Position numbers and translations under genes: made by a program. Shown here piece by piece: positions 1 through 7,549 of a stretch of DNA of 64,000 nt (position 1 is the stretch's first letter; every line of letters begins with the position of its first letter). The notes below the pieces were generated by a model. The model saw only the letters and a list, made by a program, of their open reading frames with translations. It was not told where the DNA came from and ran no database searches. The stretch is taken from NCBI RefSeq assembly GCF_053078305.1, contig NZ_CP166879.1; one strand, written 5' to 3'.

Positions 1-572
1 TGCGGGGTGTTCGTCTGCTGTTCGGGCGTGGTGTACTGACCGGCACAACGGACACGCTGAAAATCCAGAATGTGCAAATCACCGGTATGGATGGTGAAAC
101 CTTTGATGACGTTGAGCGCCCCCAGCAGTACGGGCAAATCAGCGTCCCCCTGCCTGGTGCGGAAGTTTTTCTGGCCTGTGCTGGTGGACAACGGGATCAG
201 GCCGTGGTGCTTGTGGTGGAAGACCGCCGCAGTCGCCCGACCGGACTTACCGCCGGAGATACCGGCGTGTATCACCATGAGGGGCACCGTATACGTCTGA
301 CAAAGAACGGCCGGATCATTGTGACCTGTAAGACGCTGGAGATTTACGCCGATGAAGGAGTTCAGGTGGATACACCGGAGGCTCACTTTACCGGTAATGT
401 CACAGTGGATAAGAACCTGCATGTCAAAGGCAATGTGTCCATTGACGGCACCGGAAGATCACAGGGGACGTTCACGATGTCCGAAGCGGTTATTGCCGGG
501 ATCACCTATTCAGGTCATGTGCATCACGATAACGGTGAAGGCAGCAAAACGGGAGGACCAGAGAATGGCTGA
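1..572 (+). CDS. Phage baseplate assembly protein V-like (Mu gp45 / P2 gpV type), 5' end outside window
   Basis: Open frame from window edge with no upstream stop; first gene of a V-W-J-I baseplate block; stop overlaps next start. Confidence 0.7.
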   Translation, partial: RGVRLLFGRGVLTGTTDTLKIQNVQITGMDGETFDDVERPQQYGQISVPLPGAEVFLACAGGQRDQAVVLVVEDRRSRPTGLTAGDTGVYHHEGHRIRLTKNGRIIVTCKTLEIYADEGVQVDTPEAHFTGNVTVDKNLHVKGNVSIDGTGRSQGTFTMSEAVIAGITYSGHVHHDNGEGSKTGGPENG

Positions 573-1002
573 TATTGCTGTCGTCTGGGATCAGGGTTGT
601 GGTTCCCTGCAACTGAACGGCGCAGATCTTCTGACGGATAACAGCCTGCTGACTGCGGTCATTATTTCACTGTTTACGGACAGGCGGGCGCTGGATTCCG
701 ATGAAATCCCTGACGGCACCCGTGACCGTCGGGGATGGTGGGGAGACAGTTTCCGGGAGCGCCCCATTGGCTCCCGTCTCTGGCTGTTAAGCCGTGAAAA
801 GACGCTGTCCTCCGTGGTCAGCCGTGCACAGGCCTATGCTGATGAAGCGCTGGCGTGGCTGCATAAAAGCGGTGCTGCCACATCCGTGGTATGTCATGCC
901 ATGCGTGTGGGGCATGATCGCCTTTCGCTTTCCGTGAAAATCACCCTGCCGGACGGAAGCAGACATCCGATGATTTTTTATGCTGATATGAAGGGGGAAT
1001 GA
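565..1002 (+). CDS. Phage GP46-family baseplate protein (gpW-like)
   Basis: ATG at 565 preceded by GGAGG, overlaps V stop; about 145 aa; position between V-like and J-like genes. Confidence 0.65.
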   Translation: MADIAVVWDQGCGSLQLNGADLLTDNSLLTAVIISLFTDRRALDSDEIPDGTRDRRGWWGDSFRERPIGSRLWLLSREKTLSSVVSRAQAYADEALAWLHKSGAATSVVCHAMRVGHDRLSLSVKITLPDGSRHPMIFYADMKGE

Positions 1003-2084
1003 TGCCTTATCAGCCCTTACCACTGGCGCAACTGATCACACAGACACAACAGGATATCAGCCAGCGCCTGCCCGGTTCGCAGCCGGGCGTGAATGAAACC
1101 ACCCTGAATGCCATTGCGTATGCACTGGCGGGTCTGTCAGCACAGGAGCATGAACATCTGGCCTGGATCTCCCGGCAGATAATTCCGACAGAAGCTGATG
1201 AAGCCGAACTCCTGAAACACTGCGCATTCTGGGGTGTCATCCGTAAACCGGCTTCCCGCGCTGACGGACCGGTACAACTGATGCTGACCACGGATGCAGG
1301 GATCACGGAAGGCGTACTCCTTCAGCGAAGCGATGGTGTTGTGTACCGCATCACCGGCTCTGCGACCGGAAAAGCCGGAACACTGAATGTTAATGTGGAG
1401 GCGGAAAGTGCGGGGCGCGCTGGAAATACCCCGACCGGAACCCGCCTGTCCTTTATCACGCCACAGGCGGGCATCAACCAGACAGCCACGGTCACCGGCA
1501 CGGGACTCACCGGTGGTGCGGATGTGGAAACGGTGCCGGAGTTGCTGTCCAGGCTGGTATTCCGGGTACAGAACCCGCCATCAGGGGGAACACAGTATGA
1601 TTTTGAACGCTGGGCACGGGAAGTACCGGGCGTGACGCGGGCATGGTGTAAGCCTGAATGGCCTGAGGCGGGTAGTGTTGGTGTGACTTTTGTTCAGGAT
1701 AATAACCCTGACATTTTCCCCGGAGAAGGTGATGTGAAGCGGGTGGCGGATTATATCCGCAGTCATGATGATCCGGCGACGGGCCAGCCCGTTGGTCAGC
1801 CACTTGGGCCGACAATCAGCGTGTTTAAGCTGACCAATAAGTCGGTGGCGTTTGAGATCAGGATTGTACCCAAAACGCCGGAAAATCAGGCTGCCGTAAA
1901 ACAGGCATTAACGGACCTGCTTTATAACGAATCGCGGCCGGGTGGACTTGTATTGCCTTCATCATTCTGGCGGGCTGTTGCAGGGGTGAAAGGACTGGAG
2001 GATTTTGAAGTTCGCAGTCCGCTGAAGTCCGTGATGGCCGGAGATACAGAGTTGCTGACCGTGGGGGAAATCACATGGCTGTAA
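999..2084 (+). CDS. Baseplate J-like protein (Mu gp47 / P2 gpJ type)
   Basis: 361 aa ORF, translationally coupled to flanking genes. Confidence 0.75.
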   Translation: MMPYQPLPLAQLITQTQQDISQRLPGSQPGVNETTLNAIAYALAGLSAQEHEHLAWISRQIIPTEADEAELLKHCAFWGVIRKPASRADGPVQLMLTTDAGITEGVLLQRSDGVVYRITGSATGKAGTLNVNVEAESAGRAGNTPTGTRLSFITPQAGINQTATVTGTGLTGGADVETVPELLSRLVFRVQNPPSGGTQYDFERWAREVPGVTRAWCKPEWPEAGSVGVTFVQDNNPDIFPGEGDVKRVADYIRSHDDPATGQPVGQPLGPTISVFKLTNKSVAFEIRIVPKTPENQAAVKQALTDLLYNESRPGGLVLPSSFWRAVAGVKGLEDFEVRSPLKSVMAGDTELLTVGEITWL

Positions 2085-2632
2085 CCCTGACCCCGCATCA
2101 GCGCGCCCTGTTGCAGTTGCTGCCTGACGGGCTGGCATGGGATAAGCGGCCGTCATCCGTTCTTGCAGCTTTGTGCCTGGGCCTCAGTCATTCCACGGAG
2201 CGTGTTTCCTGGACCGGTAACCAGATGCTGGCAGAACGTTTTCCTGATTCATCCCGTCTGCTGCTGGAAGACTGGGAGCGTTATCTGGGGTTGCCGGAAT
2301 GTGATATGACCGGCGCAACCATTCAGGAACGTCAGCGTTATGCCGGGAATAAATACCGGATGAAACCCTCTCTTAACCGTGAATTTTATATCCGGTTTGC
2401 GGCTGAGTTTGGTTATGAAATAGATATCCAGCCATCACCGGAATCACAATGGATCAGTATTGTGACAGTGAAGACGGCGGTGGGATACCGTCACATGAAT
2501 GTACTGGACGATATTCTTACACCACTGCGAATTTATGATGCAAGTGCGCTGGAGTGCATTTTAAACCGTTATAAGCCAGCCTGGCAGACGTTTTTATATC
2601 TGTACGAAAACAGTCATGAGGAGACGGAGTAA
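2075..2632 (+). CDS. Phage tail protein I-like (Mu gp48 / YmfQ type)
   Basis: 185 aa ORF overlapping J stop and immediately preceding the tail fibre gene. Confidence 0.65.
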   Translation: MAVTLTPHQRALLQLLPDGLAWDKRPSSVLAALCLGLSHSTERVSWTGNQMLAERFPDSSRLLLEDWERYLGLPECDMTGATIQERQRYAGNKYRMKPSLNREFYIRFAAEFGYEIDIQPSPESQWISIVTVKTAVGYRHMNVLDDILTPLRIYDASALECILNRYKPAWQTFLYLYENSHEETE

Positions 2633-3543
2633 TGTATTTTGTCGACAACAATTCAGGTGTGACCGATATGCCACCACTGGCCCCCTCTCAGGGTACGCAG
2701 GTTAAATGGTTTACTGAAGGTGACGGACGCAAAGGGATCAGCCATATCGGTCAGGACTGGCTGAACATCGTGCAGGCAGAGCTGCTTGCCATTCTGACAG
2801 AAGGAAAGGTTCAGCCGGATAAGGCAAAACTGAACCAGCTGGTGACAGCCATTAAGGCAATCATTGCAGCAAACGCATACAGCCGGAAAAACAACCTTAA
2901 GGAGATTGCGGATGCAGGTGCAGAAGCACAGGCTGCTGCCCGCCGTCATCTGGGGCTGGGAGGATTATCAGGAAAAGACAGTCTGGCTGCTGCTGATGTG
3001 GGAGCACTGGAGAAATCCCGGAATTTTGACGATGTACCGGATAAACCGACGGCCCGCCTGAATCTTGATGTTTACAGTAAGGGAGAAGGCGATGAGCGTT
3101 ATCTGCGCAGGGACCAGAATGGCGCGGATATCCCGGACAAAGGAACCTTTATCGATAACCTCGGTTTACGGGAAACGGTAAATAAGGCTGCTGATGCCCT
3201 GCCATCGGGTGGAACCGCCGTGGCAGCGAATAAACTCGCCACCCCAGTAAATATTAATGGCGTTCCTTTCGACGGAACGCAGGATATCAACATCACGTCA
3301 GGAATGACGCAGTCAACCGCAGATGGCCGGTATGTACAGAATGTTCAGCTTGGAGCACAGAGCTATCATTCACCCGGAGGCAATGAAATGTCATGGAATT
3401 ACAGCGCACCTTCCGGTTGTATGCTTTCCGGTATTAACGTGCAGGAAACCGGCTCCCGGTCTGCGGACAATATCGGTGGGGTCTATTATCGCCCGGTTCA
3501 GATTTATATTAATAATGCCTGGAGAACGGTAAGTTCAGTGTAA
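2632..3543 (+). CDS. Tail fibre protein: constant N-terminal part plus variable C-terminal cassette Sv (expressed orientation)
   Basis: 303 aa ORF; its 3' third contains the left 133-bp inverted repeat; variable C-terminus after position 3290. Confidence 0.8.
   Translation: MYFVDNNSGVTDMPPLAPSQGTQVKWFTEGDGRKGISHIGQDWLNIVQAELLAILTEGKVQPDKAKLNQLVTAIKAIIAANAYSRKNNLKEIADAGAEAQAAARRHLGLGGLSGKDSLAAADVGALEKSRNFDDVPDKPTARLNLDVYSKGEGDERYLRRDQNGADIPDKGTFIDNLGLRETVNKAADALPSGGTAVAANKLATPVNINGVPFDGTQDINITSGMTQSTADGRYVQNVQLGAQSYHSPGGNEMSWNYSAPSGCMLSGINVQETGSRSADNIGGVYYRPVQIYINNAWRTVSSV
3149..3174. other. gix/pix-like recombination site (left crossover site)
   Basis: TTATCGATAACCTCGGTTTACGGGAA, a 12-2-12 imperfect palindrome closely resembling the Gin gix site as recalled. 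Confidence 0.6.
3158..3290. repeat. Left 133-bp inverted repeat of the invertible tail-fibre segment
   Basis: Perfect reverse-complement identity with 4408..4540 (checked base by base). Confidence 0.9.
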
Positions 3544-3577
3544 ACCACAGAAAAGGGTGCTGAATGCACCCTCTGAA

Positions 3578-4099
3578 TTATTCCGGTTTTTCCGGCCAGG
3601 GAATCGCCTGGTAATGCCCCTCACTGGCAATATCATTAAAGTGCATTTCTTTAAGCTGTCGGATATACGCCATCCAGCGCGTCAGCTGTAATTTATTTTC
3701 ATCGCTAATCATGTCCAGTTTTAATTCCGTTTTCCAGTCATCCACAGTTTCGTTGGCTTCCTGGAGCAGCGATGAGCGGCGCTTTTCAGCAACCGTCTTC
3801 CAGTTTACCGGCACCTTTGATATCAGGCCATCAGAAAACTGCCAGTTACCGTCAATATCCACACCTTCCGGCAGTTCGTCCACTTCAACAACAGTAAAAC
3901 CTGCCGGATATAAAGCAGAGACATCTTCAGCAACAGAGCAGATAATACCCGTTACAGGCGAAATACAGAGTTTGTATTTCTTTGTGAAAAGCGGGAGAGA
4001 TTCATAAAAATCCCTTCCGTCCTCACTCTGGAAATACTGAACATCCTCACCATAGGGTTTGTGTTCCGGGTAATATCGTTTTACGTTAATAAGCTCCAT
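3578..4099 (-). CDS. Tail fibre assembly protein (Tfa/U-like), partner of the silent cassette
   Basis: Minus-strand ORF inside the invertible segment, just downstream of the Sv' cassette; start chosen at MELINVK with AAGGTGA SD. Confidence 0.65.
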   Translation of the reverse strand: MELINVKRYYPEHKPYGEDVQYFQSEDGRDFYESLPLFTKKYKLCISPVTGIICSVAEDVSALYPAGFTVVEVDELPEGVDIDGNWQFSDGLISKVPVNWKTVAEKRRSSLLQEANETVDDWKTELKLDMISDENKLQLTRWMAYIRQLKEMHFNDIASEGHYQAIPWPEKPE

Positions 4100-4178
4100 T
4101 ATTTCACCTTGTTTTTGTTGAAAAGACAAAATCATCATATATTTATTCAGATAATCTGTTTTTTGAACTACTGCACTT

Positions 4179-4407
4179 TTATGCGCTGGAAGCTGTTTTC
4201 CACGAACCATTTATCAGAAACTGAACAGGGCGATAATATGCGGTTACCGTTGCATTACCATCACCAGCGACATCAAGCCCTGTAAGTACGCATCCGTCAG
4301 GAACTTCAAAAATATTATATTGCATTCCAATCGTTGACCTTGAACCTCTTCGAATGCTTTGAACATAACGTGAGTCAGCCACAGACTGCGTCATCCCCGA
4401 TGTAATA
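4179..4407 (-). CDS. Alternative tail-fibre C-terminal cassette Sv' (silent in current orientation)
   Basis: Minus-strand frame continuous with the right inverted repeat, which encodes the same residues as the left one; C-terminal tail diverges from Sv. Confidence 0.65.
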
Positions 4408-4540
4408 TTGATATCCTGCGTTCCGTCGAAAGGAACGCCATTAATATTTACTGGGGTGGCGAGTTTATTCGCTGCCACGGCGGTTCCACCCGATGGCAGG
4501 GCATCAGCAGCCTTATTTACCGTTTCCCGTAAACCGAGGT
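4408..4540. repeat. Right 133-bp inverted repeat of the invertible tail-fibre segment
   Basis: Perfect reverse complement of 3158..3290. Confidence 0.9.
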
Positions 4541-4548
4541 TTCAGGGA
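4523..4548. other. gix/pix-like recombination site (right crossover site)
   Basis: TTCCCGTAAACCGAGGTTTCAGGGAT, inverted partner of the left site. Confidence 0.55.
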
Positions 4549-4603
4549 TGTCGTATATCTGCTTTAAAAGGCATTTTCACCTCTTTTTAAGGAAGGTAAA
4601 TAC

Positions 4604-5164
4604 ATGCTGATTGGCTATATACGCGTATCAACAAATGACCAGAACACAGGTTTACAAAGAAATGCGCTGGAATGTGCAGGATGTAAGCTGATTTTTGAAG
4701 ATAAAATGAGCGGAAAAACAACGCAGCGGCCGGGACTGAAGCGGGCACTGAAGAAACTAAAACCCGGTGACACGCTGATGGTCTGGAAACTGGACAGGCT
4801 GGGGCGCAGTATGCGCCACCTTGTTGCGCTGACAGATGAATTACAGCAACAGGGGATAAATTTTCGTAGTCTTACTGACAACATTGATACGTCAACCCCC
4901 ATGGGGCGCTTCTTTTTTCACATAATGGGTGCGCTGGCAGAAATGGAGCGTGAATTGATTGTCGAACGGACACGGGCTGGTCTTGCAGCTGCCCGTGAAA
5001 GGGGACGAACCGGTGGCAGACCCCGTCGTCTCACGCAGGAACAATACGAGCAGGTCGGGCGTTTACTGGCCGGGGGTGTCAGCCGAAGACAGGTGGCACT
5101 TATTTTTGATATCGGCCTTTCAACCCTTTATCGTTATTATCCTGCAAGCATTTCGGAAAAATAA
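4604..5164 (+). CDS. DNA invertase, serine recombinase of the Gin/Pin/Cin/Hin family
   Basis: 186 aa; N-terminal MLIGYIRVSTNDQ catalytic-serine motif; strong similarity to Mu Gin / e14 Pin as recalled; adjacent to the invertible segment. Confidence 0.9.
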   Translation: MLIGYIRVSTNDQNTGLQRNALECAGCKLIFEDKMSGKTTQRPGLKRALKKLKPGDTLMVWKLDRLGRSMRHLVALTDELQQQGINFRSLTDNIDTSTPMGRFFFHIMGALAEMERELIVERTRAGLAAARERGRTGGRPRRLTQEQYEQVGRLLAGGVSRRQVALIFDIGLSTLYRYYPASISEK

Positions 5165-5254
5165 GACGCTCCCTTTGTTGGGCCTTTACTGAATTAACGC
5201 AAAATGGCGTTTATCGGTCTGTGGATATGATAATTCTGTTTATTCAGGAACAGG

Positions 5255-7312
5255 ATGAATATTATGACGTCCAAATGGGTTCAACTATCATCAATGCCCG
5301 GAAACTTTACCGTTAAAGTTTCCGGTGGTACAGCGGCATTTCTTGAGGCTCCTTTTCCTCCGGCTGAAACGAAAGGAGGAATGACATTTGCTGACTGTCT
5401 CATCAGTTTTAATACACAGGATTGCCTGTGGGTAAGGCCAGTATCCGGTGATCCGAACGTGGAAATTACCGGAGCGGGTATTGGTGCTGTCATTCCGTTA
5501 AGTGCTGATGTTGCCGGTACTACTGAACCGTCAGACTGGGATAATGCTGAAACACATACCCGTCCGGCAGGAAATGAAACGGCTTCCAGCTCCCCTTCCT
5601 GGTATTACGTGATTGTTATAGCCGGTCAGTCCAATGCTTCATCTTATGGTGAAGGGTTGCCCCTGCCGGATTCTTATGATCGTCCTGATCCACGTATTAT
5701 GCAGCTGGCACGCAGGAATACACAAACCCCCGGAGGTATTCCCTGCAAATACAATGAAATCATTCCAGCAGATCACTGCCTTCATGATGTTCAGAATATG
5801 AGTCTGCTGAACCATCCAAAAGCAGACCTGAAAAAAGGGCAGTATGGTTGTGTGGGTCAGGGACTTCATATTGCGAAAAAAGTATTACCGGTGATTCCTG
5901 CTGATGCCGGGATTTTACTGGTTCCCTGTGCCCGTGGCGGCTCTGCTTTTACAACCGGCGCAGTTGGCTCATTCGATCCGGCAAGTGGTGCAGCCGAGGC
6001 GTCACTACGCTGGGGAGTGGATACCCCACTGTATCAGGATCTTGTCAGTCGAACGAAAGCGGCACTTGAGGCGAATCCAAAGAATGTGCTGTTATCTGTC
6101 GTATGGATTCAGGGGGAAGGAGACCTTAAAGCGACCCCGGCCCAGCATGGTGCCCAGTTTACTGCGATGGTGAAAAAATTCCGTGCGGATCTTGGTGCTT
6201 TCTCCGGTCAGTGTATTGGTGGTTCATCAGACAGTGTGCCGTGGTTATGTGGTGACACAACCTATGACTGGAAAGAGAAGAACCCGGCGGCATATGAAAC
6301 CATTTATAGCGGATATAAAAACCGGGCTTCCGAGAACATTCACTTTGTTCCACTGATGCACGATGAGTTCGGTAATAAAACCGCGACCAACCTGCCGGAG
6401 CACGACCCGGATATCGCTTCTGCCGGGTATTATGGTGCGGAATCACGGGGAGATGGCAACTGGACAACAGCATCCAGGGCAACCCATTTTAGCTCCTGGG
6501 CGCGCCGTTTTCTGGTCTCAGATCGTTTTGCATCAGCAATTCTTAAATATGCAGGTCTGACCTCTGCATTTATTGCCGGTGTGGCCCCTGATGGTGAAGC
6601 CCTGCCTCAGCCCGCGCCGGGTGGAAAACCGGAAGCTCCGACAGGTAGTCAGCCAGGAAGCAGTGAGTCCCCCCAGCCGACATCCCCGTCACTCCGTACG
6701 CTGCTTTCACTTAAAGCATCAGCAGGGGAAGCCCCGGCTCAGGGATGGAAAATTACAGATGGTACAATCCAGCTGACGGACGAAGGTAAAGCGCTGACCG
6801 TATCCAAACAAAGCGGAAAAACCTGGTCACTTACCCATGCGACCAGTGCTGCCGGAGAGCTGTTGCAGCATGGTGGTCAGTTGACCTGTAAATTCCGTCT
6901 GTCAGGTGAAGTAAAAGAAGGCCAGTTTGCTCTGGGTATTTACCTCCACACCGATACGGTCCCGGAAGGTGTAACCATGAGTGGTACAGGCACACCGTTC
7001 CTGATGGCGTATTATCTCCAGACAACAGGCGGCCAGTTAAATCTGATGCACCATAAAACAGGGGGGAATACGAAACTGGGATCATTTGGAGCCTACAATA
7101 ACCAGTGGCATACACTTGTCCTGAAGTTTACGGCGGGAAGTGCCCAGGTAACGCCTGTGCTGGATGGCACTCCGGGCCAGGCATTCCAGATGGTGAAAGA
7201 TGCACTTTCCCCTGCCAAAGATACGCTGACACTGACAGATGTCACCAAAGGGGCAACTTATGGCGTGTCTTTTGAGAGCGTTGTCCTTGAGGTTAATACC
7301 CCTGCGGCATAA
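5255..7312 (+). CDS. Prophage NanS-like sialate O-acetylesterase (SGNH/SASA hydrolase core with N- and C-terminal extra domains)
   Basis: 685 aa; core YYVIVIAGQSNASSYGEGLPLPD...CGDTTYDWKE resembles E. coli NanS (YjhS) as recalled. Confidence 0.75.
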   Translation: MNIMTSKWVQLSSMPGNFTVKVSGGTAAFLEAPFPPAETKGGMTFADCLISFNTQDCLWVRPVSGDPNVEITGAGIGAVIPLSADVAGTTEPSDWDNAETHTRPAGNETASSSPSWYYVIVIAGQSNASSYGEGLPLPDSYDRPDPRIMQLARRNTQTPGGIPCKYNEIIPADHCLHDVQNMSLLNHPKADLKKGQYGCVGQGLHIAKKVLPVIPADAGILLVPCARGGSAFTTGAVGSFDPASGAAEASLRWGVDTPLYQDLVSRTKAALEANPKNVLLSVVWIQGEGDLKATPAQHGAQFTAMVKKFRADLGAFSGQCIGGSSDSVPWLCGDTTYDWKEKNPAAYETIYSGYKNRASENIHFVPLMHDEFGNKTATNLPEHDPDIASAGYYGAESRGDGNWTTASRATHFSSWARRFLVSDRFASAILKYAGLTSAFIAGVAPDGEALPQPAPGGKPEAPTGSQPGSSESPQPTSPSLRTLLSLKASAGEAPAQGWKITDGTIQLTDEGKALTVSKQSGKTWSLTHATSAAGELLQHGGQLTCKFRLSGEVKEGQFALGIYLHTDTVPEGVTMSGTGTPFLMAYYLQTTGGQLNLMHHKTGGNTKLGSFGAYNNQWHTLVLKFTAGSAQVTPVLDGTPGQAFQMVKDALSPAKDTLTLTDVTKGATYGVSFESVVLEVNTPAA

Positions 7313-7369
7313 TCGTGACGGCCGGGAATTTATCCGGCTGTAACATCAGTTAATAAGAGTGAGGCTTAT

Positions 7370-7549
7370 ATGACATATATAAACGTCTGCCTGCTGTATT
7401 TCTGCACGGTGGTTTGTTGTCTGTTGCTTGTCAGCGGTGGTTATAAAATTATTCGCAATTATTTTCGAAATAAAATTGATGCAGCTGCCGAGGAAAAGAT
7501 AAAAAGCGGTGCTGTAATGCCGCAGCCGAAAGACTCCGGTCAGATTTAA
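7370..7549 (+). CDS. Hypothetical small membrane protein (59 aa, one predicted TM helix, Cys-rich)
   Basis: ATG with GAGTGAGG SD; hydrophobic N-terminus INVCLLYFCTVVCCLLLVSGG; below ORF-track cutoff, found by manual translation. Confidence 0.35.
   Translation: MTYINVCLLYFCTVVCCLLLVSGGYKIIRNYFRNKIDAAAEEKIKSGAVMPQPKDSGQI

Follow-up and report, generated by a model that had tools for sequence, protein, structure and literature searches.

A Gin-type invertible tail-fibre segment in a Mu-like, Sp18-type prophage of E. coli

In a 64,000-nucleotide stretch of E. coli DNA (the window, in whose coordinates all positions are given), a tail-fibre gene of a prophage carries one arm of a long inverted repeat and is followed by a gene for a DNA invertase. 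This arrangement raises the question of whether the locus is a host-range switch, and whether that switch inverts or has become fixed. The gene context is Mu-like, with genes for baseplate V, gp46, gp47 and YmfQ/gp48 followed by the fibre gene, the invertase gene and com/mom, and the region is very probably a Gin-type host-range switch of a Mu-like (Sp18-type) prophage.

Crossover sites within the tail-fibre gene

The features of the fibre gene and of the invertible segment are listed in order of position.

2632..3543, plus strand: tail-fibre gene, encoding 303 aa in its present, expressed form; its constant part (Sc) spans 2632-3160, and positions from 3162 onwards lie inside the invertible segment
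3149..3174, no strand: left gix-like site, TTATCGATAACC TC GGTTTACGGGAA, core TC at 3161-3162; 23/26 identity to the left Mu site
3157..3290, no strand: left arm of the perfect inverted repeat, encoding 44 fibre residues common to both variants; a 91%-complementary extension reaches 3338
3292..3543, plus strand: Sv, variable tip of the fibre as expressed (83 aa plus stop); intact in all relatives, pN/pS 0.13-0.15
4179..4406, minus strand: Sv', the alternative tip (75 aa plus stop), silent until the segment inverts
4408..4541, no strand: right arm of the perfect inverted repeat, 134 bp
4524..4549, no strand: right gix-like site, TTCCCGTAAACC GA GGTTTCAGGGAT, core GA at 4536-4537; 20/26 identity to the right Mu site

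The 303-aa fibre matched the tail fibre S of PDB entry 5yvq (E 4.6e-49) and phrog_1833, tail fiber protein (E 3e-149). Identity to Mu S is 44% between its residues 1-198 and residues 1-191 of Mu S, and 41% between its last 70 aa and the C-terminus of Mu S. NCBIfam returned no family at its cut-off for the fibre, for the product of the tail-fibre assembly gene (tfa) or for a 685-aa protein encoded beyond the invertase gene.

Positions 3158-3290 and 4408-4540 are exact reverse complements. A reading of the window made earlier from the sequence alone (the sequence-only reading) had described these as perfect repeats of 133 bp; the exact complementarity stands, while the perfect run is one base longer, at 134 bp (3157-3290 / 4408-4541). 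Beyond it the arms stay 91% complementary out to 3338 / 4360 (182 nt). An exact repeat of 134 bp is too long to have arisen by chance within 64 kb. Its origin as an assembly artefact was rejected, as an IMG/VR locus (L009) equals the window at 7540/7540 positions (perhaps from the same underlying assembly) and the layout is common to all relatives.

The 26-bp gix-like sites had been placed at the outer edges of the repeats, which is where they lie, although the right one ends at 4549 and not at 4548. When the two 26-mers were aligned to the sites taken from the Mu record, a check that the same reading had proposed, they differed at 3 and 6 of 26 positions, respectively. They are in inverted orientation, with imperfect 12-bp half-sites, and share with Mu an identical asymmetric 2-bp core (TC/GA); the Mu record annotates the G-segment boundary at the core position equivalent to that of the left site. 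No third gix-like site was found in the 64-kb window beyond 3149-3174 and 4524-4549, and a shufflon-like system with extra crossover sites was rejected because the window holds these two only.

The crossover falls inside the fibre reading frame at the junction of constant and variable parts, the same place as the annotated Mu G boundary. At present the product of 2632-3543 ends in ...YYRPVQIYINNAWRTVSSV, and the silent minus-strand cassette ends in ...YYRPVQFLINGSWKTASSA. Inversion in silico between the core dinucleotides gave an uninterrupted fibre ORF of 295 aa followed by the tail-fibre assembly gene, so that the frame is kept both ways (303 aa / 295 aa). The repeats thus lie within the tail-fibre reading frame, and inversion replaces the expressed C-terminus with the silent cassette, both as originally proposed. 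Both tips match the Mu S C-terminus in 5yvq (the flipped fibre, with Sv', at an i-Evalue of 1.7e-5), and both are stop-free in relatives with pN/pS <1. Sv is 59-69% identical to the fibre tips of P2-like and Rac-SA53 phages.

The invertase and its candidate enhancer

The invertase gene starts 55 nt past the right site, that is, immediately downstream, as had been noted. Its 5' end is a candidate position for the enhancer.

4604..5164, plus strand: Gin/Pin-family serine DNA invertase, 186 aa; 75% identity to Gin over 181 aa, 72% to PinE
4604..4723, no strand: candidate recombinational (Fis) enhancer in the 5' end of the invertase gene, suggested by synonymous conservation

The assignment to the Gin/Pin type was upheld by these identities, by the Pfam domains Resolvase (6e-51) and HTH_7 (3e-14), and by the catalytic and Fis-contact residues. 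The protein matched Gin structures (PDB 3uj3 and 4m6f, E 8e-90) and phrog_125, DNA invertase, and its residues 138-184 matched the Hin DNA-binding domain (PDB). It carries the catalytic serine S9 (Gin numbering; role described in PMC3575834). The Hin residues K47, K/R48, K/R51, Q151, R154 and L155 are reported to be conserved only in Fis/enhancer-dependent invertases (PMC3798978), and the corresponding set K46, R47, K50, Q150, R153 and L154 (Gin numbering being Hin minus 1) is present, as in Gin and PinE. Residue 114 is the wild-type M and not the Fis-independent M114V. The ORF is intact, and its pN/pS of about 0.1 indicates purifying selection.

By analogy with Gin and Hin, inversion by this enzyme would depend on an enhancer with bound Fis, located in the 5' part of the invertase gene, and, as in such systems generally, on negative supercoiling. 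Among residues identical between the window and Mu gin or pinE, 71-83% of codons are identical in codons 1-40 vs about 48% in the rest, on small counts. A search of the 5' part of the gene for Fis-like 15-mers paired at a distance of 48 bp gave one candidate, GAAGATAAAATGAGC, whose centre lies 100 nt into the gene and which can be aligned with a candidate in Mu; the 15-mer 48 bp upstream of it has no terminal C. This search brought out no pair conserved between Mu and the window, and so did not locate the enhancer.

In the mechanism that we propose, the invertase would bind the two inverted gix-like sites, cut both at the 2-bp core and, by rotation, invert the 1375-bp segment between the cores. 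Because the left site lies at fibre codon 177, the N-terminal 176 residues (baseplate attachment and shaft) would be kept and the C-terminal receptor-binding tip exchanged. The present orientation would yield the 303-aa fibre with Sv, and the inverted one the 295-aa fibre with Sv', then the tail-fibre assembly gene. A lysogen population would in this way give rise to virions with two receptor specificities, and presumably with differing host ranges.

Both orientations in nature and the lineage of the element

Among complete E. coli genomes, 181 carry the segment in the window orientation and 23 in the flipped one; among IMG/VR relatives the numbers are 16 window-like and 7 flipped. Two O157:H7 strains, NE 1092-2 and ECP19-198, differ at 880 positions when compared as they stand, and at 53 after the segment between the gix cores is flipped. 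As the perfect repeat in this pair is only 13 bp (TCGGTTTACGGGA), the exchange took place inside the gix core. Furthermore, in the IMG genome that contains locus L009, another contig (L016) carries a 1385-nt segment that is 100% identical but inverted, with flanks 99.6-99.8% identical. Inversion thus occurs in nature, in agreement with the view of the locus as an invertible tail-fibre switch. To judge from comparative genomics, switching is probably ongoing in the population of the window's strain. The 181:23 skew may reflect unequal rates, slow switching, or the fact that the sequenced strains share ancestors.

These data bear on whether the switch could be a fossil, fixed in the window's strain and no longer inverting. 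The window shows one orientation only, and some relatives have a broken invertase gene, with the match split into two overlapping pieces in loci L026 and L030. In the window, however, the invertase is intact with all key residues and is under purifying selection, the cores of the two sites match, and a second copy in the same genome holds the identical segment in the opposite orientation, which makes fixation very improbable.

It is equally improbable that RecA-dependent homologous recombination between the 134-bp repeats, rather than site-specific recombination, drives the inversion. Perfect identity over 134 bp suffices for RecA-dependent exchange, and the arms of the window copy clearly underwent homologous exchange or gene conversion, the Sv'-side arm carrying the Sv-side sequence of O157 relatives. 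Both orientations nevertheless occur in relatives whose perfect identity extends over just 13-32 bp, the point of exchange falls within the 13-bp gix core, and a conserved, intact invertase is found together with gix sites of matching core. Site-specific inversion by the invertase does not require such a repeat; the perfect 134 bp arose secondarily, when the two arms of the window copy recently underwent gene conversion.

The perfect repeat of relatives measures 13-64 bp, and 134 bp is peculiar to the window copy, a restriction that the sequence-only reading had missed. In Mu and SfMu the perfect repeat is reported to be 34 bp (PMC4406740), and in the O157 copies of the Sp18 lineage it is 13 bp.

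The element belongs to the Sp18-type lineage of Mu-like prophages, whose invertible host-specificity region is already published; the sequence-only reading had missed both points. It shares its architecture with Sp18, the Mu-like prophage of E. coli O157:H7 Sakai, and with the relatives of Sp18, at about 93% DNA identity over 2.6 kb. The constant part of the fibre has diverged to about 70% aa identity, whereas the invertible segment is nearly identical, indicating that the window element is a mosaic.

With the Mu G segment and Gin, the locus has in common the order of the gp45-48 baseplate genes, fibre S, invertible segment, invertase and com/mom, the fibre crossover point, the TC/GA core and the 75% invertase identity. 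It differs in that the segment measures 1.4 kb, against about 3.06 kb between the annotated G boundaries in Mu; the fibre has 303 or 295 aa, with the middle of S missing, vs 504 aa in Mu; there is one tfa in place of U and U'; and a 685-aa esterase-like gene with small ORFs lies between the invertase and com/mom. A search for the Mu right-end sequence gave no hit that would fix the exact end of the prophage. The e14 P segment with PinE (E. coli K-12) resembles the locus in its 72% identical invertase, in the YmfQ-family gene preceding the fibre gene, and in an stf/tfa segment flanked by sites with an AAACC-NN-GGTTT core; it differs in having two tfa genes (tfaP, tfaE) and the core dinucleotide TT, and in being a defective lambdoid element. 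The P1 C segment with Cin and the Salmonella H segment with Hin involve the same family of Fis/enhancer-dependent serine invertases, direct comparison here being the PDB match only; in the Hin system a promoter is flipped, and not a coding end. P1, like the window copy, has long inverted repeats, of about 0.6 kb, which encode shared fibre sequence.

An extremely unlikely alternative is that the inversion serves the lysogen itself, for example through alternative fibre products that hinder adsorption of other phages. Such a use is proposed for the cryptic-prophage invertases PinQ/PinR and for stf/tfa segments in PMC12529663 and bioRxiv 10.1101/2025.03.28.646004. Here, by contrast, the fibre genes belong to a late operon of Mu-like type whose baseplate genes are complete, the related Sp18 was reported to be intact and packaged (PMC2669165), and the sequence gives no hint of expression in the lysogen.

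A single chaperone gene in a segment with two tips

The segment departs from the Mu plan in its chaperone genes. Between the two tips lie a single tail-fibre assembly gene and its flanking elements.

3552..3574, minus strand: terminator-like element, a GC-rich hairpin with a T-run after it, in the gap where the Sv and tfa genes converge
3578..4099, minus strand: tfa, the only gene for a tail-fibre assembly protein (chaperone, 173 aa), reading in the same direction as Sv'
4100..4178, minus strand: AT-rich spacer, 79 nt by sequence, from the Sv' stop to the tfa start

The product of tfa matched Pfam Caudo_TAP (1.4e-18), phrog_136 (E 6e-58) and Mu U in PDB 5yvq_B (E 1.9e-15), and is 28-30% identical to Mu U and U'. 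The Mu G segment is characterised by two cassettes of tip plus chaperone (Sv-U, Sv'-U'); the window and all its relatives have one tfa. That each segment carries a single chaperone gene had also gone unremarked in the sequence-only reading. This gene points the same way as the Sv'-class tip in every case: in the window, in the E. coli relatives and in all 23 IMG/VR relatives, across three allele families. The stops of Sv and tfa are just 34 nt apart. In the present and commoner orientation, therefore, no chaperone gene lies on the strand of the expressed Sv tip.

The spacer ahead of tfa is also unusual, at 50-85 nt, whereas the gap from fibre to tfa is 2-3 nt in Mu, P2-like and Rac-SA53 phages. 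A sigma-70 scan of 2400-5400 revealed no minus-strand site ahead of tfa, spacer included, and none reading leftwards from the invertase side; Mu-type late promoters fall outside such a scan. A tfa promoter that acts independently of orientation is therefore unsupported.

The switch might accordingly be functionally asymmetric, toggling more than receptor choice between Sv' with its chaperone and the commoner Sv without a transcribed one; Sv would then have to fold by itself, use Tfa in trans or yield fibre-defective virions. The constant pairing of tfa with the Sv'-class tip and the outcome of the promoter scan favour this possibility, as do the two tfa genes each of Mu and e14 and the fact that the Sv-class tips checked in P2-like phages, Rac-SA53 and vB_EcoM_TH18 each directly precede a tfa gene. 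We nevertheless regard it as rather doubtful. The pN/pS of Sv denotes clear purifying selection and hence a functional tip, and the AT-rich spacer could hold a promoter missed by a simple scan. In addition, the N-terminal domain of Tfa, to which PMC9608196 assigns fibre binding, shares 70% identity with its counterpart in the Rac-SA53 Tfa, and the latter adjoins an Sv-class tip (69% identical). Allele families B and C likewise have nearly identical Tfa, as judged by eye, next to very different tips. One generalist chaperone could, on both counts, serve both tips.

We tentatively put forward, as a possibility on the unlikely side, that segments of the Sp18 type form a stable variant of the invertible fibre cassette with one chaperone, in which either a generalist Tfa serves both tips from an unrecognised spacer promoter whatever the orientation, or Sv folds without Tfa. 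If this were true, the rule that each invertible tip has its own chaperone would fail, and in the commoner orientation one would see a tip that needs no chaperone or is served by one in trans.

With the Sp18-type lineage and its invertible region already in the literature, the switch is an ordinary, well-supported case of a textbook mechanism, its sole unusual feature being one fibre-chaperone gene instead of two. Its discovery value is little; as an instance of Gin-type fibre switching it is clean and complete, and it stands in a prophage lineage that occurs commonly among Shiga-toxin-producing E. coli. It is of use for annotation, as RefSeq names the fibre a 'hypothetical protein' and lists the silent tip as a separate short 'tail fiber protein' or as a pseudogene, and assemblies of the same prophage differ by inversion of the fibre segment. 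The single-chaperone layout, kept across diverged alleles, adds a small point on the matching of Tfa to fibre tips.

The invertible segment and its prophage setting

The start of the window falls within a Mu-like prophage, in which the baseplate genes V, gp46, gp47 and YmfQ/gp48 lie upstream of a tail-fibre gene, and an invertase gene, a gene for a 685-aa protein, small ORFs and a com/mom-like pair lie downstream.

Features of the switch region and its surroundings
2632-3543: fibre gene, 303 aa
3149-3174: left gix-like 26-mer, outer edge of the repeat, TTATCGATAACC TC GGTTTACGGGAA
3157-3290 and 4408-4541: perfect inverted repeat, 134 bp
3162-4536: invertible segment, consisting in order of
 part 1: repeat arm, encoding 44 codons
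 part 2: expressed tip Sv, 83 aa, plus strand
 part 3: hairpin, after Sv
 part 4: single tail-fibre assembly gene (tfa), 3578-4099, minus strand (Pfam Caudo_TAP; Mu U structure 5yvq_B)
 part 5: AT-rich spacer, 79 nt
 part 6: silent tip Sv', 75 aa, minus strand
 part 7: second repeat arm
4524-4549: right gix-like 26-mer, outer edge of the repeat, TTCCCGTAAACC GA GGTTTCAGGGAT
4604-5164: invertase gene, 186 aa
5255-7312: gene for the 685-aa protein, plus strand
8560-8720: GATC-rich region
8915-9652: com-like and mom-like genes

The sequence-only reading had proposed a Gin/Pin-type invertible tail-fibre switch at 3149-4548. As it stated, 3158-3290 and 4408-4540 are exact reverse complements; the perfect run is even one base longer (134 bp), and the repeat extends to 182 nt at 91% complementarity. 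The gix-like 26-bp sites were likewise found at the outer edges, with the right end corrected from 4548 to 4549. Aligned to the two sites in the Mu record, the left and right 26-mers differ at 3 and 6 of 26 positions, respectively, and share the core dinucleotide. Since a search of the whole 64-kb window for the site core (up to 3 mismatches) matched at these two places only, the switch is a simple two-site one.

The fibre shares 44% identity with residues 1-191 of Mu S over its residues 1-198, and 41% with the S C-terminus over its last 70 residues; with both terminal parts matched, the middle of S is therefore missing. The left core (3161-3162) is at fibre codon 177, which is where the Mu record places its G-segment boundary. 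The repeats had been read as lying inside the fibre frame, so that inversion would swap the C-terminus. Inversion in silico between the cores indeed stayed in frame, yielding an uninterrupted 295-aa fibre ending in FLINGSWKTASSA, with tfa next on the same strand. Sv and Sv' each have a match in the C-terminal domain of the Mu fibre structure.

RefSeq annotation of the switch is inconsistent among three relatives (L001, L002 and L003): the expressed fibre appears as 'hypothetical protein' or, in the flipped strain, has no annotation; the silent tip is entered either as 'tail fiber protein' (67 aa) or as a pseudogene 'missing N-terminus'; and the repeat arms are overlain by spurious small ORF calls. 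Some relatives look decayed; in one (L011, 3172-3402) the C-terminal reading frame of the Sv' tip is altered.

The mom-like gene ends at 9652, and E. coli chromosome makes up the remainder of the window (opp-cls region 99.8% identical to E. coli genomes). A Mu right-end query gave no match; the prophage end would lie at about 9.7 kb. The top DNA matches (~93%) were to the Mu-like prophage in O157:H7 and other Shiga-toxin-producing strains, and those in the phage collection were labelled 'inserted Bacteriophage Mu-like phage' within Stx phage records. The GATC-rich region preceding the com-like and mom-like genes is similar to the Mu mom control region, which Dam and OxyR regulate. The 685-aa gene lies directly 3' of the invertase gene, at the com/mom position of Mu, and is kept in all relatives (53-100% identity). 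In RefSeq its homologues go under 'DUF6645 domain-containing protein' or 'sialate O-acetylesterase'; it has a match to phrog_143, a family of unknown function (E 1.5e-273), and carries a GQSN motif like SGNH/SASA esterases. Possible roles of its product are a cargo that modifies surface glycans or an enzyme associated with the virion.

Inversion in natural genomes

Three independent lines of genome comparison agree in indicating that the segment inverts. The window orientation was present in 181 complete E. coli genomes with a copy (at least 80% query coverage) and the flipped one, queried with the computationally flipped sequence, in 23; strain SMN197SH3 holds one copy of each. Among IMG/VR relatives with enough sequence (n = 23), 16 were window-like and 7 flipped. 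IMG/VR locus L009 agrees with the window at all 7540 bases compared, and another contig of the same IMG genome (L016, IMGVR_UViG_2617271340_000003) carries, relative to L009 and window 1-7540, the 1385-nt segment 100% identical but inverted, between flanks 99.6-99.8% identical. The source genome thus holds a second prophage copy in the opposite orientation. Inversion in a Mu prophage of EPEC E2348/69, possibly of another lineage, is phase-variable by experiment (PMC4272514).

The loci of two O157:H7 strains (NE 1092-2 and ECP19-198), equal in length, differ at 880 positions as they stand and, after one is flipped between the gix cores, at 53, of which 7 are inside the segment. Because their arms are identical over 13 bp only (TCGGTTTACGGGA) and the inner-side sequences are swapped between the strains, the exchange is placed inside the gix core, favouring site-specific over homologous recombination. 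The 134-bp identity could allow some RecA-dependent inversion, but inversion in the lineage must mainly proceed by another route. Perfect repeat runs in relatives measure 13, 17, 32 and 64 bp. The Sv-side arm of O157 matches both window arms and its Sv'-side arm differs; the Sv'-side arm of the window copy has therefore been overwritten by the other through gene conversion. The long identity is a recent accident, unnecessary for switching.

The fibre constant part (2632-3160) has diverged little from its counterpart in an O91:H21 prophage (pS 0.08) and strongly from O157 (pS 0.6-0.7), whereas the invertible segment is distant from O91:H21 and almost the same as in O157. This mosaic suggests that modules were exchanged, with a breakpoint located at the recombination site or close to it.

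A Gin-type invertase

The invertase gene was found immediately downstream, as the sequence-only reading had it. Its product shares 75% identity with Gin across 181 residues and 72% with PinE, matches Gin crystal structures (E 8e-90) with Resolvase and HTH_7 domains, and is under constraint of pN/pS ~0.1 against four relatives. It keeps the catalytic Ser9 (PMC3575834), Met114, which is the wild-type, Fis-dependent state, and Lys46, Arg47, Lys50, Gln150, Arg153 and Leu154, two groups conserved only among Fis/enhancer-dependent invertases (PMC3798978).

A Fis-motif scan for the enhancer revealed no conserved pair. In the Gin/Hin/Pin/Cin family, a cis enhancer lies inside the 5' part of the invertase gene. 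Compared with Mu gin and pinE, identical residues use identical codons in 71-83% of cases in codons 1-40 vs ~48% elsewhere (small counts), which fits a cis element there. The enhancer aside, every testable hallmark of the family was found. In two relatives (L026, 5926-6472; L030, 3392-3936) the invertase match falls into two overlapping pieces, suggesting a frameshift.

One chaperone gene beside two tips

Mu has two chaperone genes (U, U'), as does e14 (tfaP, tfaE), whereas this segment holds one, and only 34 nt separate the Sv and tfa stops. All relatives examined, which span three allele families (Tfa 62-65% identical, tips ~40%), have the one-tfa layout, always with tfa on the strand of the Sv'-class tip. 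A late transcript in the present, commoner orientation would therefore read tfa antisense. Sv is under purifying selection (pN/pS 0.13-0.15; 16-31 synonymous differences), and Sv-class tips in the P2-like phages, Rac-SA53 and Vequintavirinae phage checked have tfa directly next.

The Tfa N-terminal domain is the fibre-binding domain (PMC9608196). Between the three families this domain shares 77-81% identity, and with the Rac-SA53 Tfa 70%; the tip beside that Tfa is in turn 69% identical to Sv. Given this conservation, one generalist chaperone serving both tips is plausible. The fibre-to-tfa spacer measures 50-85 nt in the lineage, compared with 2-3 nt in Mu, P2-like phages and Rac-SA53; being AT-rich here, it could hold a promoter, but a sigma-70 scan of it found none. 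That the chaperone is shared between tips or dispensable is a tentative proposal, which we consider rather unlikely.

Overall, the interpretation as a Gin/Pin-type fibre switch is supported, and the element operates in the manner of the Mu G/Gin system, differing from canonical G/C/P fibre cassettes in its one chaperone gene, short fibre and 1.4-kb segment. Published work already records this lineage and its invertible region, near-identical copies exist in public genomes, and the switch is a well-formed but ordinary example. In the double lysogens (the IMG genome of L009 and L016, and SMN197SH3), both tips and the chaperone would be co-expressed. A shared or dispensable chaperone would, if true, be of modest interest.
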